The notes below the pieces were generated by a model. That model had not been told where the DNA came from. It made no database searches and saw nothing but the letters and a program-made list of their open reading frames with translations. From a virus (Duplodnaviria; Caudoviricetes): 64,000 nucleotides of DNA. The position numbers and the translations under genes were made by a program. Of this stretch, positions 3,130-64,000 are shown one piece after another; the first letter of the stretch is position 1, and each line of letters starts with the position of its first letter. The stretch is taken from IMG/VR virus record IMGVR_UViG_3300047375_000738; one strand, written 5' to 3'.

Positions 3130-3474
3130 ATGGACGAACGGCTACAAAAAGCACTTGAATTTAGTAATTATATGATTACTCTAGACAATCAGCGGCGCAT
3201 ATTAAAAGAAAAATATCAAGAAGATTTACTTTATTATTATAAAGGTGGAACTTTTACAGCTACGAAGGAGTTGATTACATTTTGTTATTCAATGAAAAAT
3301 TCTGGTCAAGACGAAATTGTAATTACTGACAATAATAACATTCCAGTAAATGTAGAAATTGATAATTTTCAAGAAGGTATTAGTAACACATACTTTCAAG
3401 CAAGCAACAAGTACTTTGTCGAATACGACAAACTTATATCAAATAGATCAGTTGAAGGTATTATCGAAACATGA
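3130..3474 (+). CDS. Hypothetical protein (114 aa)
   Basis: ORF with SD, first gene of a coupled operon, ATGA overlap with the next gene. Confidence 0.75.
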   Translation: MDERLQKALEFSNYMITLDNQRRILKEKYQEDLLYYYKGGTFTATKELITFCYSMKNSGQDEIVITDNNNIPVNVEIDNFQEGISNTYFQASNKYFVEYDKLISNRSVEGIIET

Positions 3475-4313
3475 GCAAAGGTGCTCTTTTAATTGCATGT
3501 AATAACAATCAAGTCGATTATATAAAACAAGCAATATTTTGTGCAGAACGAATAAAAAACTACTTAGAAATACCTGTTACTCTAGTTACAAGTAACAGTG
3601 GATATCTTTATGAAAATTATAAAGATAAAGTATCTGTGTTTGATAACATCGTTGAAATTGACAATTCTAGTATAAACAATTATAAAACATTTCGAGACGG
3701 TGCTCATACAGAATATAAGTTACAATGGAAAAATGCTAGTCGAGATAAAGTTTACGATCTGTCTCCTTATGACGAAACTATCGTAATGGACACTGATTAC
3801 ATATTATGTAATGATACACTAAAACATTGCTTCGAACAACATAATGATCTTTTGTTGTACAAAGATGCAGTTGATTTATCGGGTTGGCGAGATACTGCTG
3901 AATTTAATCACATTTCTCCTAACGGTATTGATTTTTATTGGGCAACTATTATCTATTTTAAAAAATCTCCAAAAACTAAAATGTACTTTAATTTAGTTAC
4001 ACATATAAAAGATAATTGGGCACACTATCGTAATCTATATAGAATACAATCATTAACATTTAGAAATGACTTTGCATTTAGTATTGCAGCACATATACTC
4101 AACGGACATATGTCAGGAAACTTTATTGGACAAATGCCTGGTAAAAAGTATTATTCAACTGATAAAGATGTATGTTATGAAATTAAGGATAATACTATTA
4201 AGTTATTGATGCAAAAGAAAGATAGAGTAGATTATTTTCCGCTTTACATAAAGGATTGTAATGTTCATATCATGAATAAATTTAGTTTGAATAGGATGAT
4301 TGATGAGTATTAA
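3471..4313 (+). CDS. GT-A fold glycosyltransferase-like protein (GT8-like), paralog 1
   Basis: DY(I)KQA N-terminus and PYDETIVMDTD DxD motif. Colinear with the next gene. Confidence 0.6.
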   Translation: MSKGALLIACNNNQVDYIKQAIFCAERIKNYLEIPVTLVTSNSGYLYENYKDKVSVFDNIVEIDNSSINNYKTFRDGAHTEYKLQWKNASRDKVYDLSPYDETIVMDTDYILCNDTLKHCFEQHNDLLLYKDAVDLSGWRDTAEFNHISPNGIDFYWATIIYFKKSPKTKMYFNLVTHIKDNWAHYRNLYRIQSLTFRNDFAFSIAAHILNGHMSGNFIGQMPGKKYYSTDKDVCYEIKDNTIKLLMQKKDRVDYFPLYIKDCNVHIMNKFSLNRMIDEY

Positions 4314-5142
4314 TTTTACAATGTTTGCACAAAATAGCGAAGTTGATTACGTACAACAAGCTAGTGTTGCAGCTATGAGCATTAAACTAACAAATCCAAA
4401 AAGTAAAATTGCACTAATTACAAACGACAAGATTCCAGAAAAATACAAACAGTTATTTGATCATGTTGTTGACATTCCGTGGAAAGACGAAGCTGAAAGC
4501 AGTCAATGGAAAATTGAAAATAGATGGAAAATATATCATGCGACTCCATTTGATGAAACAGTAGTAATTGATACTGATATGCTGGTGTTATCTGATATTT
4601 CACATTGGCACGATTTAATGAAAAACAAAGATTTGTATTTTGTAAATAAGGTGTTGACATACCGTGGCGATATAGCTGATAATACATATTACAGAAAAGC
4701 ATTTAGAAATCATCATTTGCCTAATATATATGTTGGGTGTCATTGGTTTAAAAAAAGCAATACTGCACATGAATTTTTTAAATTAGTTGAACTTATTATG
4801 CACAATTGGGAACTATTTTATGGGCAATATGCCGGCGGTAAGTATTTCCAAAAATGGCCAAGTATGGACGTCAGTTGTGCAATTGCTACAAAAATTTTAG
4901 GATGCGAACACAACGTTACACTAAACACAAGTTATCCTACGTTCACTCACATGAAATTACACAACCAAAATTGGGATAAATTATATGTCAACAACTGGCA
5001 ACAACAGCTAGGTGTTTACTTAAATAACAAGTGTCAACTAACAATTGGAAATTACACACAAAAAGGTATTTTTCATTATACAGAAGATAATTTTTGTAAT
5101 GAAAAAATTATAAAAACATACGAAACACAACTAGGAATATAA
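4303..5142 (+). CDS. GT-A fold glycosyltransferase-like protein (GT8-like), paralog 2
   Basis: PFDETVVIDTD DxD motif and FTHMK late His motif. ATG at 4303 preferred to TTG 4300. Confidence 0.6.
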   Translation: MSINFTMFAQNSEVDYVQQASVAAMSIKLTNPKSKIALITNDKIPEKYKQLFDHVVDIPWKDEAESSQWKIENRWKIYHATPFDETVVIDTDMLVLSDISHWHDLMKNKDLYFVNKVLTYRGDIADNTYYRKAFRNHHLPNIYVGCHWFKKSNTAHEFFKLVELIMHNWELFYGQYAGGKYFQKWPSMDVSCAIATKILGCEHNVTLNTSYPTFTHMKLHNQNWDKLYVNNWQQQLGVYLNNKCQLTIGNYTQKGIFHYTEDNFCNEKIIKTYETQLGI

Positions 5143-5714
5143 TGCTACAATTATCAACAACACGATATGTATATTTCGATGAAGAAGGCTCAATTACTCA
5201 AATTGGCAACAGTTTCAAGGAGGGTAGTAATTATATCAAAGTTGACTATGACGAAGTTGCTAATTTAATTACTGGCAAAGAAGTTGTAAGTAATTATGTT
5301 GTAATATTTGATAATTTAACAAAAGCACATAAATTAATGCATCGATTTATCGAAGACGAACATCGGTTTGATATTAACGATCAAATATATCAAATTCCAA
5401 ATATTTCCTTATCTCGTCCTGATATTACTATTACACAAGATATAAAAAATAGTTGTTGGCAAATAAAACTTGACGAAGCTATATCTGATAATTTACGCAA
5501 AGGTAAACTTGTATATAAAAGTCAGTTAGGATTTAGTATTACAAATAAAAATGATCCGCATGTACTGCATCAGTTTATTAGTGTTAACACAGCCGATTTA
5601 GCAAACGATGTTCTTAAATTTGAATTTTCAAGTGATTTAGAACTTGACGCAAATGCAATTAGCATTTATACTATAAAGAGATTCGAAGAATATTATCACG
5701 AGGTTTTACTATGA
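5142..5714 (+). CDS. Hypothetical protein (190 aa)
   Basis: ORF coupled at both ends (TAATG, ATGA). Confidence 0.7.
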   Translation: MLQLSTTRYVYFDEEGSITQIGNSFKEGSNYIKVDYDEVANLITGKEVVSNYVVIFDNLTKAHKLMHRFIEDEHRFDINDQIYQIPNISLSRPDITITQDIKNSCWQIKLDEAISDNLRKGKLVYKSQLGFSITNKNDPHVLHQFISVNTADLANDVLKFEFSSDLELDANAISIYTIKRFEEYYHEVLL

Positions 5715-6640
5715 GCAAATTCCGTATTTTAGATTATGATATCATTTATCTAAGTTATGACGAGCCAAATGCAGAAAAAAATTATGCAGATTTGTGTAGT
5801 AAAGTTCCTTGGGCTAAACGTGTGCATGGAGTCGAAGGCTCAGACGCTGCACACAAGGCTTGTGCCGAACTAAGCGAAACTGATCGCTTTATTACTATTG
5901 ATGGCGATAATATTGTTAATGCAGAGTTTCTTGGCAGAGAGTTTGATTTAGATTCACACGAAGATGCACATTGGAATAAGGCAATTAAGTTTGAAGACTG
6001 TGTAGTAAGTTGGAGTGCAAAAAACACTATCAACGGATTAATGTATGGCAATGGCGGTATTAAGTGTTGGCCTAAAGAAAAAGTGCTTAACATGCGCACA
6101 CATGAAAATGCAGACCCAAATAATCCACATGCACAAGTTGACTTTTGTTGGGATATGGAATATATCCAGATTAATCAGTGCCACAGTGAAATTATGAATA
6201 ATCATACACCACACCAAGCATGGCGTGCCGGATTTAGAGAAGGTGTTAAAATGGCACTTGATAGAGGCATGAAGCCTAGTGTAGATGCGTTTAAGAAAAA
6301 TCATTGGAAAAACTTACACCGATTGTATGTCTGGCTAATGATTGGCGCAGATGCAGAAAACGGACGTTGGGCAATATACGGTGCTAGAGAAGGCTTATAC
6401 AAAACAATGTGTACAGATTGGGACTTTGTAAATGTTCGTGACTTTGAATGGCTCAATCGGTATTGGGAATCGTTAGAAGTAACTGAAGAAAATCTAAATG
6501 AAACAATTGAAGAACTTGGAAGTATGTTAATTAACGAACTTGAAATTCCGATTGCCGAAGAATGTCTAAATGCACAGCAAAGTCATTTCTTTAAAACACT
6601 ATATCAAAATCCGTCAAGGATACCACGCAAAGGTCGATAA
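5711..6640 (+). CDS. GT-A (GT2-like) glycosyltransferase-like protein
   Basis: YDIIYLSYDEPNA...RVHGV...AH...FITIDGDN (DxD) and AWRAGFREG. Homologous to the C-terminal domain of 40327..42246. Confidence 0.6.
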   Translation: MSKFRILDYDIIYLSYDEPNAEKNYADLCSKVPWAKRVHGVEGSDAAHKACAELSETDRFITIDGDNIVNAEFLGREFDLDSHEDAHWNKAIKFEDCVVSWSAKNTINGLMYGNGGIKCWPKEKVLNMRTHENADPNNPHAQVDFCWDMEYIQINQCHSEIMNNHTPHQAWRAGFREGVKMALDRGMKPSVDAFKKNHWKNLHRLYVWLMIGADAENGRWAIYGAREGLYKTMCTDWDFVNVRDFEWLNRYWESLEVTEENLNETIEELGSMLINELEIPIAEECLNAQQSHFFKTLYQNPSRIPRKGR

Positions 6641-8025
6641 TGTCAAATCAAACAGATAGAGTAAAACACATTAATGATATTACTACTCGGCATTTTTCGC
6701 CGACTTTTTGTTTTGCAAAATGGTATCATACAACAATATATTTACAAACAGGTGAAACACATAGTTGTTATCATCCAGCACCACACAAGATCGATGTTGA
6801 CGAACTGTTAACCAATCCAAGTGCGTTACACAACACCAAACATAAAAAACAAGAACGCAAAGAGATGTTAGAAGGCAAGCAATGTGTTGGTTGTAACTAT
6901 TGCTGGAATATTGAAAATATGGGCGATGACTATATTAGTGATAGACACATTCGCAGTGGTAGTATCTATAACGAACAACGTTTGCAAGAAATTAAATTTA
7001 ATCCTTGGGACTTTAATGTAAATCCTGAGTATATTGAAGTTTCGTTTGGTAATGAGTGTAACTTCCGGTGTAGTTATTGTCATCCAAAAGCAAGCAGTCG
7101 CTTTCACCAAGAAATTAGACAACACGGTCCTTACGATATGGCAAAGAATCATAGATGCGATGTTGACTGGTTTAAAGTATATGAAGAAGACAGCAATCCA
7201 TATGTACGTGCATGGTGGAACTGGTGGCCTGAAGTTAGTAAAACACTAAACATTTTACGTGTTACAGGCGGTGAGCCTACGATGCAAAAAAGTACATATA
7301 GACTATTTGACGAACTTGAAAAAGAACCTAAGCCAAATCTTGAACTTAATGTAAACAGTAACTTTGGCGGCAAAGAACGTCAGCTGGCTAAGTTTACTGA
7401 TAGTGTGAACAGTTTGCTTACACAAAATAAAATTAAATCATTTAAGTTGTTTACAAGTTTAGACACATGGAACGAACGTGCTGAGTATATTAGAGACGGA
7501 CTTGATCTTAATGTGTTTGAACGCAACTTTGATTATTTTATGCAAAGCACAACAGCACCAGTAACATATATGATTACGTTTAGTTTGTTTAGTGTAACAA
7601 CATTTGAAACATTGCTAGAAAAAATATTAGAACAAAGACGTAAGTATAATAATGTAGATAGTGGACGTTGGCAGCGTATACACTTTGATACTCCTTATCT
7701 AAAAGAGCCTTTGCAGCACGATATTAATATTTTGCCTAAAGAAACGTATTTGCCGTACATGGAAAGTCATTTACAATTTATTAAAGATAACACCAAAGAA
7801 GGCAGTAAAGAACATTTTAGCGAAATGGAATATGAAAAGTTTCGCCGAGTAGTTGACTACATGAAAAATACAACTTATGATGTAAACAAAGTACGTGAAG
7901 GTCGCAAAGATTTTTGGAACTTTTTCAAGGAACATGATCGCAGACGCAATCTCGATTTTGAAAAAACATTTCCGGAAATGGCAGACTTCTTTGCGCTATG
8001 CAAGGAAGCAAATGATACCTTCTAA
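6640..8025 (+). CDS. Radical SAM protein with N-terminal twitch-like domain
   Basis: N-terminal FCFAKW..SCYH..CVGCNYC, CNFRCSYC, TGGEP, C-terminal DRRR..FPEM. Confidence 0.9.
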   Translation: MSNQTDRVKHINDITTRHFSPTFCFAKWYHTTIYLQTGETHSCYHPAPHKIDVDELLTNPSALHNTKHKKQERKEMLEGKQCVGCNYCWNIENMGDDYISDRHIRSGSIYNEQRLQEIKFNPWDFNVNPEYIEVSFGNECNFRCSYCHPKASSRFHQEIRQHGPYDMAKNHRCDVDWFKVYEEDSNPYVRAWWNWWPEVSKTLNILRVTGGEPTMQKSTYRLFDELEKEPKPNLELNVNSNFGGKERQLAKFTDSVNSLLTQNKIKSFKLFTSLDTWNERAEYIRDGLDLNVFERNFDYFMQSTTAPVTYMITFSLFSVTTFETLLEKILEQRRKYNNVDSGRWQRIHFDTPYLKEPLQHDINILPKETYLPYMESHLQFIKDNTKEGSKEHFSEMEYEKFRRVVDYMKNTTYDVNKVREGRKDFWNFFKEHDRRRNLDFEKTFPEMADFFALCKEANDTF

Positions 8026-9178
8026 AGATAATTCATATTGTTATTATCCTTTTAAACAACTTGCTATTAGTCATTGGAATAGCAAAGGTATTCAGTGTGT
8101 AAATCCTTGCTGCAATATGGCAAGTCCGTTGAACCCTGATCCGTTAAACACAGCAAAAGATATACACAATGATGTAGAGAAATTATTCGATCTACCGCAA
8201 CTGCAAAATATTCGTACACAAATGCTAAATGGAGAATATCCAAAGGCTTGCAATGGTTGCTATGAAGCAGAAAAGCACGGAACTAGTCCTAGACTAATGT
8301 TAGATACAAATGTAAACAATGAACTAGAATGGCTAGATATACACTTAGGTAATAAGTGCAATCTTAGATGTAGAATGTGTCATCCGGCATTGAGCAATCA
8401 ACTCAACAAAGATGCAGAAAAATTTAAACAAGATGGTTACAAATATTGGTGGGATAGTGTTCCTGATATTGCTCCGCATGATATTTCTGTGTTGTATCCT
8501 GTACTACACAAAATAACAAATATACGTGTCAGCGGTGGCGAGCCTTTGTTATCAAATGAATATTTAGAGTTGCTGGATTATTGTATAGAAAATAATCTAG
8601 CACATAATATTACTTTAGAACTACACACTAATGCTACAAAATTTAATAATGCTAATGTAGATAGATTAAGCAAGTTTAAACATGTAAATGTTACATTTAG
8701 TATTGACGGTGTACGTAAAATTTATGAATATGTGAGATACCCTTTTGCATTTCAAATATTAGAAAATAGCCTTAAGAATTTTTTTGACAAAGTAAAAAAA
8801 TATACAGCACAAATTAATTATGTAGTATCTATATATAATGTGTTAGATATACGCAACACACAGTATTGGGCAAAACAATATCCAATTAACAATTTTATAA
8901 TTACAAATGTTTTTCCTGCTAAACGTAATATTGATATATGTCATTTACCAATACCAATATTGCTTATGGCAAGAGAAATGATATTAGATACAGTTTATCA
9001 AACTGAAAATCTTGAAAACTACATAGTGCAATGCATGGAAGACAATAAGTACAATGACTACGATAAAGACAAATGGAAAGAAATTAAAGAAGAAGTAATG
9101 CAGTTTGATAAAAATAGAAATCAAAACTATCGAGATTATCTTAATTCTTATATTATTGATTGGTTGGACAAGATATGA
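8012..9178 (+). CDS. Radical SAM protein with N-terminal twitch domain
   Basis: Start reassigned to ATG 8012 (MIPSKDNSYC). YCYYPF..PCC..CNGC, CNLRCRMC, SGGEP. Confidence 0.9.
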   Translation: MIPSKDNSYCYYPFKQLAISHWNSKGIQCVNPCCNMASPLNPDPLNTAKDIHNDVEKLFDLPQLQNIRTQMLNGEYPKACNGCYEAEKHGTSPRLMLDTNVNNELEWLDIHLGNKCNLRCRMCHPALSNQLNKDAEKFKQDGYKYWWDSVPDIAPHDISVLYPVLHKITNIRVSGGEPLLSNEYLELLDYCIENNLAHNITLELHTNATKFNNANVDRLSKFKHVNVTFSIDGVRKIYEYVRYPFAFQILENSLKNFFDKVKKYTAQINYVVSIYNVLDIRNTQYWAKQYPINNFIITNVFPAKRNIDICHLPIPILLMAREMILDTVYQTENLENYIVQCMEDNKYNDYDKDKWKEIKEEVMQFDKNRNQNYRDYLNSYIIDWLDKI

Positions 9179-10392
9179 AGGAAGAACATTTAGGAAATGG
9201 AACGTTTTGCATGTTTCCTTGGCTACACTTAAATGTAACACCCAAGGGAGATGTATATCCGTGTTGTAGTAGCGACTATGTTGAACCTTTTGCTAATGTA
9301 AAAGACACAACATTAGAACAAGCATTTAATACTGAACGGATGAAACAGTTGCGACTCGATATGTTAGCTGGTCGTAAAAACGAAGCATGTACATTTTGTT
9401 ATAAACACGAAGAAAGTTCTCCTTACAGTTTTAGAAAATATAGTATTGAGAAATTTGCAGACAAGTACGAAGAATTAGTACCCTATACTAATCAAGACGG
9501 CAGCTTAGATAAATTTACAATGGCATATTACGATATACGCTTTAGTAACATTTGTAATTTTAAGTGTAGAACCTGTGGCAGTGAATTTAGTAGCAAGTGG
9601 GGACAAGAACACAAAGAACACGATGCGCCCCCTCCAGGATTTAAAGTTGTACAACATGCAGATAGTAGTGGCAAATTATTAGATCAAGTATTAGAACAGA
9701 TACCTAATATTGAATTAGCATACTTTGCTGGCGGCGAGCCACTTATTACAGACGAACACTATACAATACTCAATGAAATGATTGCTAATGGTAGTTGTAA
9801 AGATATTACATTACGCTACAATACAAACATGAGTAACTTTAGATACAAAAAATACGACATACTTGACATGTGGAGTAATTTTAAAGAAATTGAAGTTAGT
9901 GCTAGTTTAGATCACTTTGGTCCAAAGGCCGAATATATTCGCAACGGTACTCATTGGTTTACAGTAGAAAATAATTTACGTACAATTAGAGATGTTGATT
10001 TTATCAACTACCAATTCAATTGCGTATTGAGTAATTTAAATTATGTTACACTTGGTGACTTTTTTAGATATATGATTGATAAAGACTTATTACGTAAGCA
10101 CGATTACATTAGCATTTACCATTTGTTAAATCCTAGTTTTTACAGTGCGCAAAATCTTCCTTTAGAATTAAAAGAACAAGGCACACTTGGATTATTAAAA
10201 GTTATTAATGAAATTAAGGATGACTTTTGGTGTACACAGCATATACAAAATGCATTGAATTTTGCCAATAGCGATCATACCTGGGAACAAAACGGCAAAG
10301 AATTTATACATAATACTGTAAGAAGAGATAAAATACGAAATGAAAATTTTGTAGAAACATTTCCTGAACTGGCATCAATGATAAATGGATAA
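9175..10392 (+). CDS. Radical SAM protein with N-terminal twitch domain
   Basis: ATGA-coupled start 9175. FCMFPW..PCC..CTFC, CNFKCRTC, AGGEP, D..R..FPEL. Confidence 0.9.
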   Translation: MKEEHLGNGTFCMFPWLHLNVTPKGDVYPCCSSDYVEPFANVKDTTLEQAFNTERMKQLRLDMLAGRKNEACTFCYKHEESSPYSFRKYSIEKFADKYEELVPYTNQDGSLDKFTMAYYDIRFSNICNFKCRTCGSEFSSKWGQEHKEHDAPPPGFKVVQHADSSGKLLDQVLEQIPNIELAYFAGGEPLITDEHYTILNEMIANGSCKDITLRYNTNMSNFRYKKYDILDMWSNFKEIEVSASLDHFGPKAEYIRNGTHWFTVENNLRTIRDVDFINYQFNCVLSNLNYVTLGDFFRYMIDKDLLRKHDYISIYHLLNPSFYSAQNLPLELKEQGTLGLLKVINEIKDDFWCTQHIQNALNFANSDHTWEQNGKEFIHNTVRRDKIRNENFVETFPELASMING

Positions 10393-11668
10393 AGATAATT
10401 TACTAAAACGCAACAAAGCATTTTGTATTCTTCCGTGGATACATATGCACGCCTGGCCCGATGGCAGGGCAATGCCTTGCTGTATTGCGGATAGCGATCA
10501 GCCTTTTGGCAATGTTAAAGAAAATAGTATCAAAGAAGTTTGGAATAGTGACAAATACAAAGAACTACGTTTAGCAATGCTTAATGGTGAAAAACTAGAT
10601 TGTTGCAGACGTTGCTACGAACTCGAAGATAGTACTTACATCTGGACACTGCGTAAAAATCATAATCAGTGGTTCGGCGATAAACATTTTGATCTAGTTG
10701 AAAAAACAAACGCAGATGGCAGCATTGATGAAATGCGTATGGCGTATATGGATATACGATTTAGTAACATATGTAATATGAAGTGTAGAACATGTGGACC
10801 TGAATTGAGTAGTCTACACGCACAAGAACATGGCGAGCTATATGGAAAACATGAAGTTGCTAACATACTTAAAAATAATGGCAGTAATATTGTTAATGTA
10901 GCAAAGCACAAAGACTTTTGGAACGAACTACAGCAATACTTGCCAGATGTTGAAGAAGTATATTGGGCAGGCGGCGAGCCGCTTATTACAGACGAACATT
11001 ATAAAATATTAGATCATTGGATTGATATTGGTAAAACTGATGTGCGACTACGTTATACAACTAATTTTAGTAATCTAAGATTTAAACAAAAAAGCATTAT
11101 TGATTATTGGAAAGAGTTTCCAGATATTCAAGTTAGTGCAAGTTTAGATGCAATGGGTGCAAGAGCTGAGTTTATGCGGTTTGGCACAGTATGGGATACT
11201 GTTGAACGTAATAGACAAGAAATGCTTGAACACTTGCCTAATATTCATTTTGAACTAACACCAACAATAAGTATGTACAATGCTTGGAACTGGCCCGACT
11301 TCCATATGGATTGGGTTGAACGTGGATTGGTTGATATTGAAAATTGTAGATTAAACATGTTAACTGATCCAGATTTTATGCGTTTAGATAATATTCCAAA
11401 TGATTATAAGATTGAGTTACGTAGTAAATACATTGACTATAAAGCATGGGCATACGACAAAATTAAAGATCGCATAGCAAACAATCCAGCAGTAGTAAAA
11501 GATGTACTTGGTAAAATTGATAGTGTGATACAATTTATGAACACAGGCGAGTTAAACAAAGATAAATTAAAACAGTTCTTTGACAAAAATCATGGACTTG
11601 ATCAGCATCGTAAAGAAGACTTTTGGAGTACGTTTCCTGAACTAGAGTGGTTAAGAAAATATGTCTAA
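10385..11668 (+). CDS. Radical SAM protein with N-terminal twitch domain
   Basis: FCILPW..PCC..CRRC, CNMKCRTC, AGGEP. Close paralog of 9175..10392. Confidence 0.9.
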   Translation: MDKDNLLKRNKAFCILPWIHMHAWPDGRAMPCCIADSDQPFGNVKENSIKEVWNSDKYKELRLAMLNGEKLDCCRRCYELEDSTYIWTLRKNHNQWFGDKHFDLVEKTNADGSIDEMRMAYMDIRFSNICNMKCRTCGPELSSLHAQEHGELYGKHEVANILKNNGSNIVNVAKHKDFWNELQQYLPDVEEVYWAGGEPLITDEHYKILDHWIDIGKTDVRLRYTTNFSNLRFKQKSIIDYWKEFPDIQVSASLDAMGARAEFMRFGTVWDTVERNRQEMLEHLPNIHFELTPTISMYNAWNWPDFHMDWVERGLVDIENCRLNMLTDPDFMRLDNIPNDYKIELRSKYIDYKAWAYDKIKDRIANNPAVVKDVLGKIDSVIQFMNTGELNKDKLKQFFDKNHGLDQHRKEDFWSTFPELEWLRKYV

Positions 11669-12632
11669 CTTAACAAAAATTACTCCAATGGCAGAACCAT
11701 ATGCTACAATAACGTGGCAAGTAAACAACTTCTGTAATTTTCAATGTACATACTGCAATCCAGGTAATTGGGCAGGATCAAATCGTAACAACAGTAATCT
11801 TGATACATATATGAAAAATGTACGTGGCATATTTCAGCAGTATCAAGACAAAGGATACAAATACTTTAAGATATTTTACAGCGGCGGCGAACCTACACAC
11901 TGGGAAAACTTTATTCCTCTTACAGAATATTTAAAAGACGAATTAGGTGACAATCTTACAGTAGCAGTAAATACAAACTTATCACGTCCAGTAAGATATT
12001 GGGAAAAGCATTGTCACTTGTTTGACGATATTGTTGCTAGTTTTCATGTAGAATTTTGTAAGAAAGATCGTTATATTGAAAATGCACAATTTTTATGCAA
12101 CAAAGTTGACTATCTATGCACAAAGATGTTGATGCACGAAGAGCGCTTTTGGGAAGTAGTTGAATTTGGCAAACGTGTAAAAGCCGAAGTGCCTAATTAC
12201 AATTTAGAATGGACACCGTTGTTTGACGAAATGAGTGTTAATGCTGGTCCGTGGCAATACAAAGATCCTGATAAAGTAAAATTTTTAGAAGCTGCTCAGT
12301 TTGAAACTAAAATATCTATACCAAAGCCGTATAGACAAAACAAAGCAATTAGTAATAGCCATTATGATAACGGAACAATTGTGCCAACAAACAGCAACAC
12401 TATTATTGCTGATAGACAGAACTTCTTTACAGGATGGAAATGCTCTGTTGACGATGCATTGTTTATCAATCCAAGAGGAGAAATGTCAAGTGCAAGTTGC
12501 GGCGTTGGCAACACTCATGGAAATATTTTAGATAAAGACTTGACATTTGACATGAAACCTGTTATATGTAGTAAACAACACTGTCATTGCGGCACAGATA
12601 TTATTATACCAAAGGAACCAATTAATGCATAG
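11661..12632 (+). CDS. Radical SAM protein with C-terminal SPASM/twitch-like Cys cluster
   Basis: CNFQCTYC, SGGEP, GWKC..SC..ICSKQHCHCGTD. Confidence 0.9.
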   Translation: MSNLTKITPMAEPYATITWQVNNFCNFQCTYCNPGNWAGSNRNNSNLDTYMKNVRGIFQQYQDKGYKYFKIFYSGGEPTHWENFIPLTEYLKDELGDNLTVAVNTNLSRPVRYWEKHCHLFDDIVASFHVEFCKKDRYIENAQFLCNKVDYLCTKMLMHEERFWEVVEFGKRVKAEVPNYNLEWTPLFDEMSVNAGPWQYKDPDKVKFLEAAQFETKISIPKPYRQNKAISNSHYDNGTIVPTNSNTIIADRQNFFTGWKCSVDDALFINPRGEMSSASCGVGNTHGNILDKDLTFDMKPVICSKQHCHCGTDIIIPKEPINA

Positions 12633-13383
12633 TCATCTACTTGTAAACGGATGTAGTCATACCGCCGGTAGCGAAATCGAAGGCAGCGGAGTTGGTGAAG
12701 GCAATTATAATAGACAAAATTGTTATGCAGCACAAATTGCTAAAAAGTTAAATTGGGAATATACTAATATTGCCATGCCTGGCGGAAGTAACGATTATAT
12801 CAAACGTACTACTATGCTTTGGATACTTGATAATCCAGAACGTGCTAAAAATACACATTTTTTTATTAACTGGACTGGTGCCGAACGCACTGAATATTTT
12901 TATGATAATTGGGACAATAACAGATATAATTTAAATAAATTTATTCCTTATACTCCAGATAAAAAAGTACTGCATTTGCATCCTCAGCATTATCCTGATT
13001 GGGCACCCAAGGCTTGGCGCAAAAATTTAGATATACTAGGTGATCATTTGTTTATTAATCCGGTGCAGTGGCAGATTAATCGATACATGAATATTATTGA
13101 GTTACAAAGTTTTTTAAAAGCAAATAATTTTAGTTATACTTTTAGAAATAGTCTTCAAGCATGTTCAAATACAAAAAGATACAAGTACTATGCTAGTAAA
13201 ATTGATAAACAAAATTTCTTATACTGGGATGATGAAAGCTATAGCTTTTTTGAAAATTGTTTAGCACAAGGGCATAGTGTTGAAGGACAAATGTATTGGC
13301 ATCATCGATTACCGGCTCATACATATTGGGCAGATGAACTTTGGGAATCGAGTTTTAAGTTGTATTCGTCAAACCATTTATAA
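12625..13383 (+). CDS. SGNH hydrolase/acyltransferase-like protein
   Basis: Block I NGCSHT, NIAMPGGSN, WTGAER, and C-terminal His. Confidence 0.6.
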   Translation: MHSHLLVNGCSHTAGSEIEGSGVGEGNYNRQNCYAAQIAKKLNWEYTNIAMPGGSNDYIKRTTMLWILDNPERAKNTHFFINWTGAERTEYFYDNWDNNRYNLNKFIPYTPDKKVLHLHPQHYPDWAPKAWRKNLDILGDHLFINPVQWQINRYMNIIELQSFLKANNFSYTFRNSLQACSNTKRYKYYASKIDKQNFLYWDDESYSFFENCLAQGHSVEGQMYWHHRLPAHTYWADELWESSFKLYSSNHL

Positions 13384-14666: not shown

Positions 14667-14698
14667 AATACTACTCCAATTTTCGTTAAGTACGTATA

Positions 14699-16483: not shown

Positions 16484-16487
16484 ACAG

Positions 16488-53211: not shown

Positions 53212-53240
53212 TTGACAGAACACAAAACGGATGCTATAAT
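53212..53240 (+). promoter_or_regulatory. Consensus sigma70 promoter with extended -10, leaderless
   Basis: TTGACA, 17 nt, TGc-TATAAT, then 5 nt to ATG 53246. No SD. Confidence 0.85.
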
Positions 53241-53245
53241 ATAAT

Positions 53246-56509: not shown

Positions 56510-57078
56510 ACTTTATTGAACTCAGCAACCTTCCTGTATACGATTTGTATACAGAATTTTTAAGACTTCTTGATGAAAAAAAAATATGGTGGCATCATGA
56601 TGTAAACGATCAGATTTGTTTAAACGCAACCAAAGCTGATCCGTCAAACTGTTTAACAGGCAGAGGAAGTTTGTTTTTAGATTGGGATAGCTGTTACACA
56701 AACGAACACGGCAAACTAATAGTACCTCCTAGAAAAGTTCCTTTAAAGGAAGATAGCTTTGAGGTACTTTGTACAGGGTTTAAAGATTCATTATTTGAAG
56801 ATGTGTATAATAGTGTAACTAAAAAATATAAAGTAGGCAGAATTCGCATAATGAATTCTAGGCCTAAAACTTGTTTAACTTGGCACAATGATGATACTCC
56901 TAGATTACATTATCCAATAAAAACACAAGACGGGTGTTTTATGGTTATTGAAAACAAAAGTAAGCATCTAAAACAAAATCAGTGGTACTGGACAAACACA
57001 GTTGTTCCTCATACTGCATTTAACGGTAGTACAGATGAAAGACTTCATTTGGTAGTTACAATATTGGGTGATAAATGA
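56506..57078 (+). CDS. AspH-like 2OG-Fe(II) oxygenase
   Basis: GTGA-coupled start 56506. RIRIMNSRPKTCLTWHND..RLHYPI..HTAFNGSTDERLHL. Confidence 0.8.
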   Translation: MNFIELSNLPVYDLYTEFLRLLDEKKIWWHHDVNDQICLNATKADPSNCLTGRGSLFLDWDSCYTNEHGKLIVPPRKVPLKEDSFEVLCTGFKDSLFEDVYNSVTKKYKVGRIRIMNSRPKTCLTWHNDDTPRLHYPIKTQDGCFMVIENKSKHLKQNQWYWTNTVVPHTAFNGSTDERLHLVVTILGDK

Positions 57079-57569
57079 AATACGCAATAACAGGACATAC
57101 ATCTGGTATAGGAAAAGCTATATCTGAATCAGTCACAAACTTTATTGGATTTAGTAAAAGCACAGGATATAATATCAATGAACACATTGATAGAAAACAT
57201 ATTATTAAACAATGCAATGATGTTGATATTTTTATAAACAATGCACATGATGGGTTTGGGCAAACTTATATGTTGTTAGATCTGTTCCATGCGTTTAAAG
57301 ATACTAATAAAACAATAATCAATGTTGGTAGTGTAATAGCAGAAGACGAAACAATATTAAAAAACTATGAACATTTGTTAGAATATCAAATACAGAAAAA
57401 ATCATTGCGTGTTTTACACAACGATTTGATTAAGTTAGATACAACTTTGAATTTAAAATATACTCAGTTTGGGTATGTAGGAACTGAACGCATATTACAA
57501 AAGTATCCCAACATGGCTACTACAGAATATATTACAGTAGACAACGCAGTTGACATAATACTGTCATAA
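57075..57569 (+). CDS. Compact short-chain dehydrogenase/reductase
   Basis: ITGHTSGIG, FINNA, NVGS, YQIQK (YxxxK). 164 aa. Confidence 0.75.
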   Translation: MKYAITGHTSGIGKAISESVTNFIGFSKSTGYNINEHIDRKHIIKQCNDVDIFINNAHDGFGQTYMLLDLFHAFKDTNKTIINVGSVIAEDETILKNYEHLLEYQIQKKSLRVLHNDLIKLDTTLNLKYTQFGYVGTERILQKYPNMATTEYITVDNAVDIILS

Positions 57570-58245: not shown

Positions 58246-58908
58246 ATGACAGTTAAAATGTATAAATCTGTGTTGTCTGCCCACGTAGTAGATAACCTTC
58301 TCGATTTCTTTAATAATAATACACATCTACACTATGACACAATGGGAATGACTAAAATTGGACAGCCCTGGAGTCATATACAACACATACTTGAACCTAT
58401 TTTAAAAAAATATATACCTGTTGACAAAAACTTAGGTGATAATTTTTATAAGCACGACTTTCCTTACTTTACACATATAGATAGCGGAAACAATAAAAAT
58501 AGTTACAATATTTTAATCCCACTTTATGTAAGTGATAATGCAGAACAAAAGTTTGTTGTGTTTGATCAGCATTGTACTGATTACAGTGGTGCAACATGGT
58601 TAGGTGATATATGGAAACCTGAACAAGATTTTAACCTTAATAAAAAACGTGACTTTCCATACAAAGACCCAACAGTAATTGGCTGTACCGATCAGCCTAT
58701 TTCTGACGATATGTATGAAATATTAAAATATGATTATCGCAATGAAGAACAGTTTTACGGTTTAACTGGTACTGCATATGATTATAAGCCAGGCAACATA
58801 CTTGTATTTCCTAGCAATCAGTTACACTGCACAGGTCGTATGGATTGTGATTATAAAATAGGGCTAAGTTTGCGGTTTGAAATACTTGACAAAACTGTAT
58901 TTCTGTAA
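58246..58908 (+). CDS. 2OG-Fe(II) oxygenase-like protein (second subfamily)
   Basis: FTHID, ILIPL, VFDQ, PGNILVFPSNQLHCT. Confidence 0.65.
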   Translation: MTVKMYKSVLSAHVVDNLLDFFNNNTHLHYDTMGMTKIGQPWSHIQHILEPILKKYIPVDKNLGDNFYKHDFPYFTHIDSGNNKNSYNILIPLYVSDNAEQKFVVFDQHCTDYSGATWLGDIWKPEQDFNLNKKRDFPYKDPTVIGCTDQPISDDMYEILKYDYRNEEQFYGLTGTAYDYKPGNILVFPSNQLHCTGRMDCDYKIGLSLRFEILDKTVFL

Positions 58909-58914
58909 TATAAT
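58886..58914 (+). promoter_or_regulatory. Consensus sigma70 promoter, leaderless
   Basis: TTGACA, 17 nt, TATAAT, then 6 nt to ATG 58921. Confidence 0.8.
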
Positions 58915-58920
58915 AAAGAT

Positions 58921-59901
58921 ATGAAACCACAAGATAAACAATCAATTCTTTTGAGTTTGGCTCAGTTTATTGAAGATAATCAAGAATATATTCTACAACT
59001 AGAACCTACTGCTCTTATTAATATCAGTGTTGATATTTGTAGATATTATGCTGGTGCAGCTCGAAACCTAATAGCCGTGCCTGAATATGAATACTTTAAG
59101 ACATGCACTAGTAGTATGAGATGGGAATCAAAAGGACACTGTTTAGGTGTTGTTCCTTGGAACTATCCATTGGTTATAGCATTATGGAAAATAGCGCCGG
59201 CACTAGCAGCTGGATGCACTATTGATATTAAACTAAATGATGGTAATGTAGGTGCCTTGCCTTGGATATTAGATAACTGGAAAAACAAATACAATAGTGT
59301 AAAAATAGTCAACAATATAAATTTACAAGAGTATGACTTTGTTGATATAACAGGCAGCAAGAAAACAGCAGATTATTTTAAATCAAACCACCATGATGTA
59401 AACGCAGATGTAGGCGGAGCAAGTATAGCAGTTGTTAACGATGGTAATTCGGCATTTATATTAGAAAATCTTGAATGGAGTGTTAAGTACAATCTTGGAG
59501 CAGATTGCACAGCACCTAAACATATTTTTGTTGTTGAAAAACTACTTGATACTGTAACAAAAATTGACGGTGTTACCTTAGGAGAGTGCAATGATATTGA
59601 TCACTTTTCTCCTACAGCAACAGTAAGCACATATACAAATATCAAAGATCTTGTAAAACAAATAAACCAACTTCCTAATAGATTAGGATTGCATTTATAC
59701 ACCAAAGATTTAGCAACCAAACGTTATGTAGTTGAACATGCACGTTGGGGAACTATCTTTGTAAACAAACCATTAACTGTGCCAGTTGAAATGCCACACA
59801 GTGGAATGGCTTCTAGCGGCAATACATTCAATCAAAGTTTTTTTAAAATATATCAATATCTTGTACCCAAACATATTGTTGTAGGAGATCAGATTGATTG
59901 A
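58921..59901 (+). CDS. Compact aldehyde dehydrogenase (aminobutyraldehyde dehydrogenase-like motifs)
   Basis: PWNYPL..WKIAPALAAGC, ITGS, DVGG, GADCTA (catalytic Cys), EMPHSG..SSG. 326 aa. Confidence 0.8.
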   Translation: MKPQDKQSILLSLAQFIEDNQEYILQLEPTALINISVDICRYYAGAARNLIAVPEYEYFKTCTSSMRWESKGHCLGVVPWNYPLVIALWKIAPALAAGCTIDIKLNDGNVGALPWILDNWKNKYNSVKIVNNINLQEYDFVDITGSKKTADYFKSNHHDVNADVGGASIAVVNDGNSAFILENLEWSVKYNLGADCTAPKHIFVVEKLLDTVTKIDGVTLGECNDIDHFSPTATVSTYTNIKDLVKQINQLPNRLGLHLYTKDLATKRYVVEHARWGTIFVNKPLTVPVEMPHSGMASSGNTFNQSFFKIYQYLVPKHIVVGDQID

Positions 59902-61857: not shown

Positions 61858-63611
61858 GTAGAGTAATTATATTAAATGATATTTATGATGTTAGAGGCAC
61901 CGGAGGTGTGAAGTTTCGCCAACATTTTTGCACCGACGAAGAACGTGAAGATATGGTTGAAAAGCATGTGTTTGATAAGAGTGTTGAAAAAGAATTAAAC
62001 AACACTGCACCTGCTAATGGAAACTATACCAGTGGACGATATGAAGGAAATAGCAAGTACAACTTTTGGTCTCGTTATATGGGTCCATACTGTGTAGCAA
62101 ATAGCATTCGAGAAAATTGTCCTCAAATGGATGTTGTTGTTTTAGATTATTTTACAAAACTAGATAACTTTTTTGAAGTATTTGAACAACTAGTAACACC
62201 TGATACTGAATACGTTGCACTTAGTGTAACATTTTTAAATAATCCATTTAATCCAAAACAAAAAGATTTTAACCTATGGCACTTTAGTCAAGAAGAATGT
62301 TTAGATTGGTTCCAACGTGTAAAAGAAATTGCTCCTAAAGCACAGATTATAATAGGTGGCGCTATTGTAGATACTATCTATAAACAACAAATAGTACAGA
62401 AAAAAAAGATGCCTATGGCGCCTGTAATATTAAAGTATGTTGATTATATGTTTCATGGTTATAGTGAAAATACCATTGTTGATTTTTTTAATAATAATCT
62501 AGATCCAAGTCAAGTAATTGAAAAAGACAGTGTAATTTTTATCAATGAACCTGCACTTGCTGGCAGAGGCGCTGTAGTAAATCAAACCAAATGGTCAGTA
62601 AAAGATTGTGTACAACCGGGAGAATGGTTGCCGTTAGAAATATCAAAAGGCTGTAGATTTGGTTGTAAGTTTTGTTTTTATGATACACATGGTACAGTTA
62701 TTAAAAGTCCCGAATGTTTGAAACAAGAACTACTGTATAACTATGAGCACTTTGGAACTACAGGTTACCAACTTACTGACGATACAGTAAATGATAGTTT
62801 AGAAAAAATTGAAATGATGCATAGTGTAATTACTAGTTTACCATTTAAGATTGAATGGATAAGTTATGCTAGACCTGATATGTTTCATAAGTATCCCCAA
62901 ATGCTACCATTGATGTTAGAAATGGGATGTAGAGGAATGTTTTTAGGTATTGAAACTTTGAATCATACAGCAGGTAAAATATGTGGAAAAGGATTAGATC
63001 CACAAAAAATTAAAGGCATAATAAAATGGATAAGAGAAACAGCAGGTGAGGAAGTATTTTTAACAGGCAGTTTCATTATTGGTCTTGTAGGTGAAACTGA
63101 AGAAAGCCTTATGGACACAGCAAGTTGGCTGAAAGAACAACAATATTTAAATAAAGCACAATATGAAATATTGTTTATAGCAGATGACGGTGGCCGAACA
63201 AGTAATCAGTTTAGTGAATCACAAGGCAAATATGGTATACATGAATTAAGATGGAACCCTGAATATTATTGGAAACATGCTACAATGGATTTAATAAGAG
63301 CAAAAGAAATAGCATTACAATGGGAAGATATGTTATCGGATCATTCATATACTGGGTTTGAACGTCATGCAGATTACAATACTAGTTTTTGGGCGTATCC
63401 TAGATTGCGTAGTTTTGGCCTCAACCATAATACAGCAACTAAGGTTTTAAGTTCTACACAGATTCCTGATATAGTTTATGACAAAAATCTTGAATGGATT
63501 TCAAAATATCATTCAGATATTATTAACACAAATCAACTTAGTGTTGAAGCTAAGTTGGTAGACTTATCACCTAATAATATGCGAGCATCATTTGGTCATA
63601 CCGGAGCATAA
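61854..63611 (+). CDS. B12-binding-domain radical SAM protein
   Basis: GPYCVANSIR..ALSVTF..IIGG, EISKGCRFGCKFC, DDT, GIET, IIGLVGE. Confidence 0.8.
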   Translation: MSRVIILNDIYDVRGTGGVKFRQHFCTDEEREDMVEKHVFDKSVEKELNNTAPANGNYTSGRYEGNSKYNFWSRYMGPYCVANSIRENCPQMDVVVLDYFTKLDNFFEVFEQLVTPDTEYVALSVTFLNNPFNPKQKDFNLWHFSQEECLDWFQRVKEIAPKAQIIIGGAIVDTIYKQQIVQKKKMPMAPVILKYVDYMFHGYSENTIVDFFNNNLDPSQVIEKDSVIFINEPALAGRGAVVNQTKWSVKDCVQPGEWLPLEISKGCRFGCKFCFYDTHGTVIKSPECLKQELLYNYEHFGTTGYQLTDDTVNDSLEKIEMMHSVITSLPFKIEWISYARPDMFHKYPQMLPLMLEMGCRGMFLGIETLNHTAGKICGKGLDPQKIKGIIKWIRETAGEEVFLTGSFIIGLVGETEESLMDTASWLKEQQYLNKAQYEILFIADDGGRTSNQFSESQGKYGIHELRWNPEYYWKHATMDLIRAKEIALQWEDMLSDHSYTGFERHADYNTSFWAYPRLRSFGLNHNTATKVLSSTQIPDIVYDKNLEWISKYHSDIINTNQLSVEAKLVDLSPNNMRASFGHTGA

Positions 63612-63614
63612 AAT

Positions 63615-64000
63615 ATGGCAGACGCAAAGTTTATAGAACCTTTATTTGATACTCAATATTTCAAACAGTTATTCTTTTCAAAAATCAATCAGCATGTACA
63701 AACTGAATTAAGCTCAGTGATAAATGACTGGATTATGATTAATCTTTACAACCCAACACAAGAGTATCACGAAACACAAACTGGAAGTGAATTTGTTTGG
63801 ACGAACGATTATCACTGTATGGATAAGCAAGTATTCACATCAGTTTTGCATATGGCACAAGATGGAACAATACTCTTTGAAGACGGATACAAAAATATTC
63901 CTGTACATATTTTTGATCATGACAGCATAGCAGATAACTCTTATTATTATGATCAGTGTAAAAACAAAAAATTCAAATATCTTTGGTATAGTATTCACAA
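63615..64000 (+). CDS. Hypothetical protein, 3'-truncated by the window end
   Basis: ATG 63615 (MADAKFIEPLFDTQ...), frame open to base 64000. Not in the ORF track. Confidence 0.65.
   Translation, partial: MADAKFIEPLFDTQYFKQLFFSKINQHVQTELSSVINDWIMINLYNPTQEYHETQTGSEFVWTNDYHCMDKQVFTSVLHMAQDGTILFEDGYKNIPVHIFDHDSIADNSYYYDQCKNKKFKYLWYSIH

Follow-up and report, generated by a model that had tools for sequence, protein, structure and literature searches.

The stretch of DNA analysed here (the window, 64,000 nucleotides) is the minus strand of positions 59925-123924 on a single 170,115-bp virus contig with a GC content of 36% (IMG/VR record IMGVR_UViG_3300047375_000738). Behind tail-fibre genes it carries a 62-kb island, in which 64 tightly packed open reading frames (ORFs) run from 3130 to 64000 and encode, among other enzymes, 20 radical S-adenosylmethionine (SAM) proteins and eight putative glycosyltransferases (GTs). 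We propose that the island probably tailors sugars and assembles them into a glycan, whatever the acceptor of that glycan may be. The narrower proposal, that the sugars are tailored in the cytoplasm and the glycan is assembled on a phage-encoded protein, is put forward tentatively, as a possibility that falls somewhat short of an even chance. Genes are named below by their left-hand coordinate in the window and lie on its plus strand unless stated otherwise.

Gene content of the island

Forty-four of the 64 ORFs are enzymes supported by annotation tools, about 10 more were recognized by motif only, and about 10 are of unknown function or non-enzymatic. A first-pass annotation of the window had counted about 59 modifying enzymes, a total that appears somewhat high, together with 20 radical SAM proteins, a number that proved exact: the Pfam family Radical_SAM was found in precisely 20 window ORFs, and the CxxxCxxC motif is present in 20 of 20. 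Its eight GT-like proteins were recovered as two GT8 proteins (by profile), four GT-B paralogs (by fold) and two GT2-like proteins (by Atlas cluster names). Its amidinotransferase was confirmed by a strong match to StrB1, and Pfam supports the aminotransferase (DegT), the halogenase (Trp-halogenase family), the adenylase (AMP-binding), the aldehyde dehydrogenase (ALDH), GNAT and the two nitroreductases. Eight HxD oxygenases had also been listed; three of them are Asp/Asn beta-hydroxylases and one is a Cpz10-like hydroxylase, and the other four were recognized by the motif only. Weaker assignments are the five SGNH-like proteins (a GCSxT motif, matches to DUF6071 and DUF6473, and a profile E-value of 0.004 to a GDSL protein), the QueC-like protein (an SGGxDS motif and PF06508 at an E-value of 0.03) and a short protein resembling short-chain dehydrogenases/reductases (SDR; motif only).

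No polyketide synthase, nonribosomal peptide synthetase, carrier protein, terpene synthase, transporter or peptidase family was matched by Pfam in the 64 ORFs, as the first-pass annotation had held for all but the peptidases. Intergenic DNA amounts to 494 nt in the whole window, which leaves no space for an unannotated precursor-peptide gene and bears out the earlier remark that no clear precursor peptide is present. The island products are soluble: none of the 64 ORFs holds a credible membrane segment, and the three transmembrane segments that were flagged correspond to a probable false N-terminal extension, to a Rossmann strand and to an internal stretch of ALDH. The earlier statement that no characterized pathway has this composition also holds. 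Two points had escaped it, namely that islands with 'radical SAM cassettes' have already been published (PMC7029224, PMC5332604), and that the present island is a hypertrophied form of a widespread core module.

The island genes are intact. In all 18 of those tested against orthologs at 77-96% amino-acid identity, the ratio of nonsynonymous to synonymous substitutions (dN/dS) was 0.05-0.19, with a median of 0.07, so that the tested genes are under strong purifying selection. These values and the intact motifs rule out pseudogenes or decay.

The core module and its position behind the fibre genes

Within the island we recognized a core operon with the order small protein, GT8, GT8, 190-aa protein, GT2-like, N-twitch radical SAM, GT2-like and methyltransferase. 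The first gene (3130-3474) encodes a conserved small protein of 114 aa, which has homologs in marine contigs and, as ORF354, in the Ralstonia jumbo phage RsoM2USA. It is followed by two paralogous GT8 genes (3471-4313 and 4300-5142), whose glycogenin-like products have a DxD motif and match glycogenin in a PDB profile search (E = 6e-6 over positions 5-104). Residues D107 and D109 are invariant, there is no Pfam match, and we regard the pair, by likeness, as putative glycosyltransferases. Next come a conserved 190-aa protein (5142-5714), which has no family match and keeps its position in relatives and in RsoM2USA, and a GT2-like glycosyltransferase (GT-A type, DGD motif; 5711-6640), whose nearest Atlas clusters bear the name 'Glycosyltransferase 2-like' (score 0.98) and which and is 44% identical to RsoM2USA ORF350. 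The second GT2-like domain forms the C-terminus of a multi-repeat protein (40138, with a probable start at 40330, to 42246), a paralog of 5711 and a homolog of RsoM2USA ORF348, in which three internal repeats of ~110 aa ('...Y(E/D)(E/D)YL.A...S.TEMFW...DIYFTH...') precede this domain. The gene at 42230-43198, methyltransferase-like at the motif level, is a paralog of 22635 and a homolog of RsoM2USA ORF347.

A complex of the 114-aa protein with the first GT8 is predicted. The model gave an ipSAE of 0.83, against 0.00 for the best control; the mark set for this score was reached by 58 of 80 solved complexes and by 2 of 110 mismatched pairs. The prediction runs share at least 98% of their contacts, and the pLDDT of the partner is at least 89.

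Upstream of the core lie the 3' part of a 497-aa tail-fibre gene (1-1080; PHROG tail fibre, Pfam Phage_cement_2/Peptidase_G2), the C-terminus of which matches tail-fibre and intramolecular-chaperone-like families, and two genes for paralogous virus-only proteins (1107-2039 and 2041-3075) that have three bundled helices at the N-terminus and a beta-sandwich at the C-terminus. For the 1107 protein, the fold was predicted with a pLDDT of 88 and shows weak likeness to PDB entries (galectin, carbohydrate-binding modules and fibre tips, with Z of 5-6.5); no informative relative was found in PDB or Atlas, and its relatives are otherwise viral alone. A homolog of 1107 always stands directly upstream of the core module, and the 1107 and 2041 proteins are candidates for a fibre tip, an adhesin or the acceptor. 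A repetitive fibre-like protein of 621 aa with no family match (38388-40253, minus strand), recognized by its sequence repeats and served by its own late promoter, is embedded in the island.

The core module occurs in more than 100 marine viral contigs. The recurrent gene set starts with a 1107-like gene, the 114-aa protein, two GT8 proteins, the ~190-aa protein, a GT2-like protein, a twitch radical SAM protein and a second GT2-like protein, and goes on with small radical SAM proteins, a methyltransferase, a twitch radical SAM protein, further small radical SAM proteins, another twitch radical SAM protein, a QueC-like protein and a hydroxylase. Even homologs of 1107 with merely 29-30% identity keep the order, after a 5017-aa protein and fibres and before the core module, and their islands have a different tailoring set, in which a carbamoyltransferase, a nitroreductase and a full-length DegT occur. 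RsoM2USA was the sole match among 50,697 deposited phage genomes; its ORF354-346 (MG752970) form a nine-gene core in the same order at 32-44% identity. This module lies directly behind a fibre-like gene, which shares its N-terminus with the fibres of the present phage and its C-terminus with 2041 and which follows a giant protein confirmed in virions (PMC8504454). These comparisons suggest that the island grew by duplication and accretion around a conserved, fibre-adjacent core operon.

Because the core is kept together with fibre genes in phages of unrelated hosts, we argue that the acceptor travels with the phage and is associated with its fibres. The two conserved non-enzymatic small proteins of the core, the fibre-like late gene embedded in the island and the predicted binding of the 114-aa protein to the first GT8 favour the same conclusion. 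In a more specific form, which we consider distinctly unlikely, the product would be a protein-primed glycoconjugate: GT8 would hold the conserved 114-aa protein, which would serve as a primer or carrier in the manner of glycogenin, and either this protein or the neighbouring fibre-tip protein would receive the glycan made by the eight transferases. The sugars would have been rewritten by up to 20-25 radical SAM proteins into C-methylated, epimerised, deoxygenated, guanidinylated or halogenated forms, giving a lineage-specific phage glycocalyx on the host-recognition apparatus. If this is true, such a protein-primed glycan would represent virion chemistry and radical SAM carbohydrate enzymology new to bacteriophages.

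Putative sugar-tailoring enzymes

The gene content of 12625-22641 suggests a block for amino- and guanidino-sugars combined with GT-B transferases. It contains the DUF6071 SGNH-like gene (12625; weak Pfam match), four GT-B paralogs (13317 on the minus strand, and 17228, 20634 and 21565, with the block ending at 22641), three further SGNH-like genes (14720, 16503 and 18307), a StrB1-like amidinotransferase (15479-16483, minus strand; profile E = 3e-58 over residues 5-332 to 1bwd), a DegT aminotransferase (19088-19690, minus strand) and a nucleoside diphosphate (NDP)-sugar epimerase/dehydratase (19714; epimerase/GDP-mannose-dehydratase family, E = 3e-38). The C-terminal GGCFHC motif of the amidinotransferase, which holds the catalytic Cys, is invariant in nine homologs. 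One of the four GT-B proteins was folded, and all 50 of its 50 best Foldseek matches are GT-B (probability 0.99-1.0, TM-score 0.35-0.43); the group is otherwise defined by paralogy.

Carbohydrate chemistry is favoured by the combination of eight transferases with a dehydratase/epimerase, aminotransferases and the StrB1-like amidinotransferase, StrB1 being an inosamine-phosphate amidinotransferase that adds a guanidino group to an aminocyclitol phosphate. It is also favoured by the hydroxylase nearest to Cpz10 of the caprazamycin pathway, which has a uridine-linked substrate, by the acyl- and methyl-transfer candidates, and by the affinities, albeit weak, of the radical SAM proteins to viperin, MoaA, QueE, BlsE and the BtrN twitch domain. 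The first-pass annotation had suggested that the substrate is a macromolecule made elsewhere. This is plausible, with the reservation that much of the chemistry probably takes place on nucleotide-activated sugars before transfer and not on a finished macromolecule, since the solved relatives StrB1 and Cpz10 act on small sugar, cyclitol or nucleoside substrates, and since the NDP-sugar dehydratase/epimerase and DegT families occur together with eight glycosyltransferases.

We therefore infer that sugars are the substrates, a glycan is the product and a phage protein is the acceptor. The soluble island proteins, made from their own early (sigma70) and late promoters, would act in the cytoplasm of the infected cell, where host nucleotide sugars would be converted into deoxy, amino and guanidino sugars and probably also into C-methylated, epimerised, oxidised, acylated or halogenated ones. 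The enzymes involved would be the dehydratase/epimerase, DegT aminotransferases, the StrB1-like amidinotransferase, the 20 radical SAM proteins, 2-oxoglutarate (2OG) hydroxylases, SGNH-like and GNAT acyl enzymes, and methyltransferases. The eight glycosyltransferases would join the modified sugars into a complex glycan on a phage-encoded protein. The likeliest acceptor is the fibre-associated product of a neighbouring gene, and the 114-aa protein that is predicted to bind GT8 may take part in priming. With tailoring sets that differ among related phages, each lineage would have a glycan of its own.

We also considered the possibility that the island makes a free small molecule, i.e. a metabolite akin to an aminoglycoside, an aminocyclitol or a nucleoside, with activity in the infected cell or after lysis that is directed, for instance, at competing phages, the host or grazers. 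The StrB1-like amidinotransferase and the Cpz10-like hydroxylase, which recalls a nucleoside-antibiotic pathway, would suit such a product, as would DegT, the dehydratase and the putative B12-class and the twitch radical SAM proteins, all of which occur in aminoglycoside pathways, and the halogenase, adenylase, nitroreductases and ALDH. However, a cyclitol or scaffold synthase (including the 2-deoxy-scyllo-inosose and inositol-phosphate synthase families), a resistance gene and an exporter were not found by Pfam in the 64 ORFs, and eight GTs exceed the need of any such metabolite. That the core is kept beside fibre genes and has small proteins as partners indicates a product linked to protein. 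We therefore regard a free metabolite as very unlikely.

The radical SAM proteins

Eighteen of the 20 radical SAM proteins score above the Pfam gathering cut-off of PF04055. The two below it are 10385, which is rescued by 393 bits on the NCBIfam family NF033640, and its paralog 6640. All-against-all BLAST divided the 20 into three groups, namely nine N-terminal twitch (N-twitch) proteins, eight small proteins and three putatively of the B12 class.

The N-twitch proteins (394-468 aa) have a SPASM/twitch-like Cys domain on the N-terminal side of the core, with four N-terminal Cys invariant in all nine. Two were scored on NF033640 ('twitch domain-containing radical SAM protein', cut-off 170 bits), 10385 with 393 bits and 23234 with 396 bits, and the other seven were assigned by paralogy. 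Pfam SPASM lies N-terminal to Radical_SAM in six of the nine. An alternative genetic code or a frameshift was considered as an explanation for this order and rejected, because neighbouring genes are in different frames and the N-twitch arrangement is a defined NCBIfam architecture. Four N-twitch genes stand in tandem at 6640-11668 (6640, 7895, 9160 and 10385), others are found at 23234 and 31349 (the latter on the minus strand), and three more at 45751, 47154 and 48466 (to 49650). The eight small proteins (~300-370 aa) have a C-terminal Cys cluster and are encoded at 11661-12632, 24610, 25517, 28413, 29413 and 30465 (both minus strand), 44117 and 53246; their NCBIfam likeness is solely to nucleotide-acting viperin, MoaA and QueE, and is weak. 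The putative B12-class proteins (54358, 60334 and 61854) match class-B families alone, all far below the NCBIfam cut-offs, with weak near matches of PhpK, RiPP (ribosomally made, post-translationally modified peptide) and hopanoid type; a B12-binding Pfam match was obtained for 60334 alone, at a sub-threshold 22 bits.

In searches with the twitch radical SAM profile against solved structures, SkfB was the best match, and the sugar-nucleoside enzyme BlsE and the BtrN twitch domain were also matched. This raises the alternative that proteins are modified directly, without a glycan: the targets of the radical SAM proteins, the beta-hydroxylases and the halogenase would be virion proteins, for example the 4581-aa structural protein or the fibres, which would acquire cross-links, epimerised residues, methyl groups or hydroxyl groups in a RiPP-like manner. 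The SPASM/twitch radical SAM proteins are mostly peptide maturases, as is consistent with SkfB being the best solved match, members of the Asp/Asn beta-hydroxylase family act on proteins, and the island adjoins very large structural proteins. On the other hand, no RiPP recognition element (RRE) or PqqD-like domain, leader peptide or protease is present; Pfam gave no PqqD/RRE, peptidase or ABC match, there is no small variable ORF, and conservation extends over the full length of the 114-aa protein. The lack of a precursor, an RRE and a protease speaks against a role of RiPP type. Direct modification would also leave the eight GTs and the NDP-sugar enzymes unexplained, and cellular homologs of the twitch radical SAM proteins were not beside peptide genes in the loci examined, one array being associated with a sulfotransferase and a GDSL enzyme. 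Taken together, this reading appears highly improbable.

Gene 10385 has more than 5,000 homologs at E of 1e-10 or below in metagenomic proteins, and for 23234 the IMG/VR contigs yielded 111 close relatives, at 62-97% identity, and the 185,579 cellular genomes none. Cellular members of NF033640 stand alone or in short arrays in the genomes of Bdellovibrionota, Bacteroidota and Elusimicrobia, and their genomic context, inconsistent in the loci examined, revealed no substrate. Tandem arrays of three or four twitch-type and small radical SAM genes are found in three metagenome-assembled genomes (MAGs) of Bdellovibrionota and Crocinitomicaceae (L096, L115 and L151), and in L151 the array is interleaved with the sulfotransferase and the GDSL-like enzyme; such cellular arrays may be the counterpart or the source of the phage cassettes. 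A 42.7-kb contig assigned to a 'Legionellales MAG' (PBLX01000002.1, L102) carries 5711-like and 6640-like genes and seven tandem twitch radical SAM genes. It has no membrane or cellular-looking genes and has the appearance of phage DNA that ended up in a bacterial bin.

Related virus records show that 20 radical SAM proteins is extreme but not unique: five of them hold 6, 6, 9, 13 and 25, and the own contig holds 21. The record with 25 Radical_SAM matches, which is more than in the window (IMGVR_UViG_3300044701_002822, L025, 76.8 kb), may be the richest radical SAM island of the lineage.

Promoters and the timing of expression

Perfect TTGACA-N16-18-TATAAT sites number 12 in the 170-kb contig, where shuffled sequences predict 0.3, and most of them lie immediately upstream of genes; the early genes of the phage appear to use the exact host sigma70 consensus. 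Five of the 12 are directly upstream of island genes, namely 3130, 32586 (minus strand), 40138, 53246 and 58921. The site at the start of the island (TTGACA-N17-TATAAT, 3079-3107) is kept in the relatives L075, L079 and L088 although the spacers differ, and the leader of 3130 is 23 nt long and includes a ribosome-binding site (GGAG). At 53212-53240, 5 nt separate the end of the -10 box from the ATG of 53246, and the site before 40138 (within 40292-40332) ends at 40320, with the start codon probably at 40330. Sites ending 5-9 nt before an ATG were seen at 53212-53248, 58886-58923, 40292-40332 and 33281-33316 (minus strand), and such proximity suggests leaderless early mRNAs for 53246, 58921, 40138 (start 40330) and 32586.

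The T4-type late-promoter motif TATAAATA occurs seven times in the window, six of them just upstream of gene starts (1107, 16503, 27634 on the minus strand, 28413, 38388 on the minus strand, and 50346), and five lie inside the island. The copy at 1076-1083 is 24 nt upstream of 1107 and conserved before its homolog in L088, which marks the fibre-side gene 1107 as a late gene. Others are located at 16471, before 16503, and at 40271-40278 on the minus strand, where it serves 38388. The promoters of a conserved cassette described below stand at 28379/28401 and 33287. The sites indicate that the island start is probably early, with additional late promoters inside.

Early expression would fit a role of the island in modifying phage DNA, with tailored sugars attached to a modified base as in T4 glucosyl-hydroxymethylcytosine or in arabinosyl-hydroxycytosine, so that restriction and other nucleic-acid defences are evaded. 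T4 beta-glucosyltransferase is among the fold matches of the GT-B protein, one HxD protein has a faint Tet_JBP match (E = 0.08), a guanidino sugar, being cationic, would suit DNA, and the diversification of the island fits an arms race. However, no hydroxymethylase/ThyA-like (PF00303) or TGT/DpdA (PF01702) match was found in the 170-kb contig, which covers ~48% of the genome and in which a distant DpdA could be missed. Known DNA glycosylation takes one to three GTs rather than eight (PMC13326640), the GT8 and GT2-like core enzymes are no known DNA glycosyltransferases, and DNA modification would not account for why the island keeps strict synteny with fibre genes and has a fibre gene embedded in it. 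We accordingly consider a role in DNA hypermodification very doubtful.

The same promoters are also consistent with remodelling of the host envelope, in which precursors of the lipopolysaccharide (LPS) core, O-chain or capsule would be made or altered at the cytoplasmic face and exported by host flippases, so that superinfecting phages are excluded or progeny are kept from re-adsorbing to debris. This is the published reading for GT-rich host-recognition clusters of pelagimyophages, in which GT8 proteins are taken as LPS enzymes (PMC7029224). It accords with a core module under conserved early sigma70 promoters, with a hypervariability like that of O-antigen loci and with the linkage of the module to receptor-binding genes. 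However, we found no initiating membrane GT, flippase, polymerase, ligase or other membrane protein in the island. The NDP-sugar enzymes and several GTs of an O-antigen or capsule locus are present, and the membrane transferase, the flippase or ABC transporter and the polymerase or ligase are not, so that a classical O-antigen or capsule pathway is disfavoured because every membrane component is missing. Moreover, the core is kept at 32-44% identity in phages of such unrelated hosts as marine bacteria and Ralstonia, it holds two conserved non-enzymatic small proteins, and 20 oxygen-sensitive Fe-S enzymes seem costly for exclusion in a lytic cycle. Envelope remodelling is therefore unlikely in our view.

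Several points also weigh against glycan assembly on a phage protein. Enzymes of the radical SAM/twitch type more commonly mature peptides or cofactors, and no specific functional match was obtained for any of the 20 radical SAM proteins. No acceptor was identified and no glycan was seen, about 10 ORFs are without assigned function, and a sugar-activating nucleotidyltransferase was not found in the window. The conserved perfect sigma70 promoter before the core means early expression, which fits DNA modification or host-surface remodelling at least equally well, and the fibre synteny could merely mirror a region tolerant of insertions. The complex of GT8 and the 114-aa protein is a prediction that rests on a model score. 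In addition, mass spectrometry of RsoM2USA virions, which dealt with 10 abundant gel bands and had glycosylation outside its scope, detected no module products (PMC8504454).

The phage and the distribution of the island

The host genome of the island is that of an uncultured marine T4-like jumbo myovirus of ~350 kb; this size follows from the CheckV completeness of the source contig (48%) and from a syntenic relative on a 362.8-kb contig flagged as circular. The contig ends at the start of the gp23 major capsid gene. Its structural proteins resemble those of T4-like cyanophages, some of its other genes resemble those of PA5oct/RaK2-type jumbo phages, and psbA, looked for as a sign of cyanophage origin, was not found in the contig. 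Upstream of the island lie a 4581-aa virion structural protein, two tail proteins and the tail fibre with a chaperone-like C-terminus. The 4581-aa protein (phrog_10938; 5031-18773 on the minus strand of locus L004, contig 128952-142697) is encoded just upstream of the fibre genes, and its 5017-aa version in relatives has faint FG-GAP and CBM_5_12 matches. A position directly behind virion genes had been claimed in the first-pass annotation and is confirmed, together with the viral origin, by gp23, the 4581-aa protein and the tail proteins in the flanks; a cellular chromosome or prophage is ruled out by gp23, the virion proteins, the IMG/VR record and the lack of a close relative in the 185,579 cellular genomes. 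The island extends ~1.3 kb past the window end, to contig position 58642, with two more genes, of which the second is aminotransferase-like. Beyond this far end follow baseplate/fibre-like genes, which are convergently transcribed.

The phage encodes its own SAM synthetase (metK, E = 2e-59) at contig 41634-42734, outside the window and ~17 kb from the island, which fits a high demand for SAM. Genes for Fe-S assembly (HesB/ATC) were not found in the contig.

In at least 14 public metagenome runs, those found coming from 13 studies (2018-2025), 99-100% of the words sampled from the ~10-kb stretch 22635-32600 were recovered. The runs are seawater metagenomes, one of them labelled freshwater, and the genotype of this stretch is widespread and stable. 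Three RNA-seq libraries from two studies contained scattered identical contig pieces of the island, 150-780 nt long; DNA carry-over is possible, and the pieces lend weak support to expression.

Other genes of the island

The stretch 22635-34789 is the most widely conserved radical SAM cassette, found in 70-80 of 80 related IMG/VR loci. Besides the radical SAM genes listed above, it contains a methyltransferase-like gene (22635; motif level) and, on the minus strand, a 401-aa protein without assigned family (26511), an Asp/Asn hydroxylase (27634; Pfam), the QueC-like PP-loop protein (32586) and a protein without family match (33300), followed on the plus strand by the Cpz10-like beta-hydroxylase (34133-34789; profile E = 4e-14 to 7v4f). 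Profile searches against PDB returned nothing for 26511 and 33300, nor for the families of 5711, the GT-B group and the methyltransferase-like proteins. Pfam searches at E up to 10 on the ten unknown ORFs yielded nothing useful, and hidden Markov model tests of the contig for GT10 and GDSL gave no match.

Next on the minus strand are a flavin-dependent halogenase (34742; Trp_halogenase, E = 1e-65), which is 28-30% identical to halogenases of Syn10 and HTVC008M, an N-terminally short AMP-binding adenylase (36154-37122; E = 2e-16) and two conserved proteins without assigned family (37122 and 37708, the latter to 38388). The rest of the island holds a DUF6473 SGNH-like protein (43402; weak Pfam match), an ORF without assigned family (45168), a second Asp/Asn hydroxylase (49639, minus strand; Pfam), a paralog of 26511 by BLAST (50346) with a late promoter at 50333, three HxD proteins known by motif (51665, 55784 and 58246), a Pfam nitroreductase (52475-53110, minus strand), a third Asp/Asn hydroxylase (56485; Pfam), the short SDR-like protein (57075-57569), a second Pfam nitroreductase (57589), a short ALDH (58921-59901; Pfam), a GNAT (59894; Pfam) and an ORF with no assigned family that runs off the window end (63615-64000). 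Four of the enzymes are much shorter than their family models, i.e. DegT (200 aa, 19088-19690, minus strand), the AMP-binding protein (322 aa, 36154-37122, minus strand), ALDH (326 aa, 58921-59901) and the SDR-like protein (164 aa, 57075-57569). As the short DegT length is kept in relatives at 63-96% identity, the short enzymes may be functional minimal forms and not fragments.

Comparison with known systems

This kind of island has already been described, with its function uncharacterised. Pelagimyophages and cyanomyophages have a hypervariable host recognition cluster (HRC) after VrlC and the fibres, and 'radical SAM cassettes' were noted in those of pelagimyophages and never characterised (Zaragoza-Solas et al. 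2020, PMC7029224). Like the HRC (PMC7029224), the island is a large non-syntenic region in the structural module, placed after a giant VrlC-type protein and tail fibres, and it varies gradually between related phages. It shares with the HRC the giant virion protein and fibres upstream, the GTs, the radical SAM cassettes and the variation; its far border differs from that in pelagimyophages, which is gp14. At the corresponding place, HTVC008M encodes four 2OG oxygenases, and it also has a homolog of the halogenase. In contrast, the island measures 62 kb against a mean of 44.6 kb, consists almost wholly of enzymes with 20 radical SAM proteins among them, and belongs to a jumbo phage of ~350 kb. 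In the HRC paper (PMC7029224), the radical SAM cassettes are not analysed gene by gene, a core module is not reported, and the mechanism goes no further than 'host O-chain modification'. By its description, the T4-like marine viral genome TARA_ERS488813_N000010 (Nishimura et al. 2017, PMC5332604) resembles the present case in its multiplicity of radical SAM genes; 12 were counted there, in the context of Fe-S supply, and no link to GTs, fibres or a product was drawn.

Clusters for aminoglycoside and nucleoside antibiotics (StrB1, BtrN, Cpz10, BlsE) share with the island the amidinotransferase, twitch radical SAM, 2OG beta-hydroxylase, DegT and dehydratase families and, putatively, methylase-like radical SAM enzymes of the B12 class. 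Unlike them, the island has no cyclitol or scaffold synthase and no resistance or export gene, sits in a phage structural module, and encodes GT8, GT2-like and orphan GT-B transferases rather than GT1. In giant viruses, as in the Mimivirus fibril and the chlorovirus capsid glycans, soluble cytoplasmic sugar-nucleotide enzymes and GT-A/GT8-type transferases from clade-specific clusters decorate virion proteins. Those are eukaryotic viruses, for which acceptors and glycans were determined experimentally, and no radical SAM expansion is known in their glycosylation clusters.

What is new here is the scale, the division of the radical SAM proteins into three families, the core module with its counterpart in a phage that can be cultured, the arrangement of the promoters, a system made up of soluble proteins alone, the enzymes resembling StrB1 and Cpz10, and the predicted complex of GT8 and a small protein. 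In addition, the island concentrates much uncharacterised radical SAM chemistry, with eight small twitch-like and three putative B12-class proteins beside nine that share the architecture of NF033640, a family without assigned function of which nine paralogs stand here in one island. If the glycan reading is true, marine jumbo phages devote a sixth of the genome to a private carbohydrate factory at their host-recognition genes, and phage-host specificity in the ocean would gain a chemical dimension. The closest deposited counterpart, RsoM2USA ORF346-354, has the same gene order beside a fibre-like gene and a virion-confirmed giant protein. It differs in having one radical SAM gene and none of the tailoring blocks, its counterpart of the 190-aa protein has 184 aa, its genes are annotated as hypothetical, and its host is a soil and plant bacterium. 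Since this nine-gene core is present in a culturable phage, the function of the module can now be tested.

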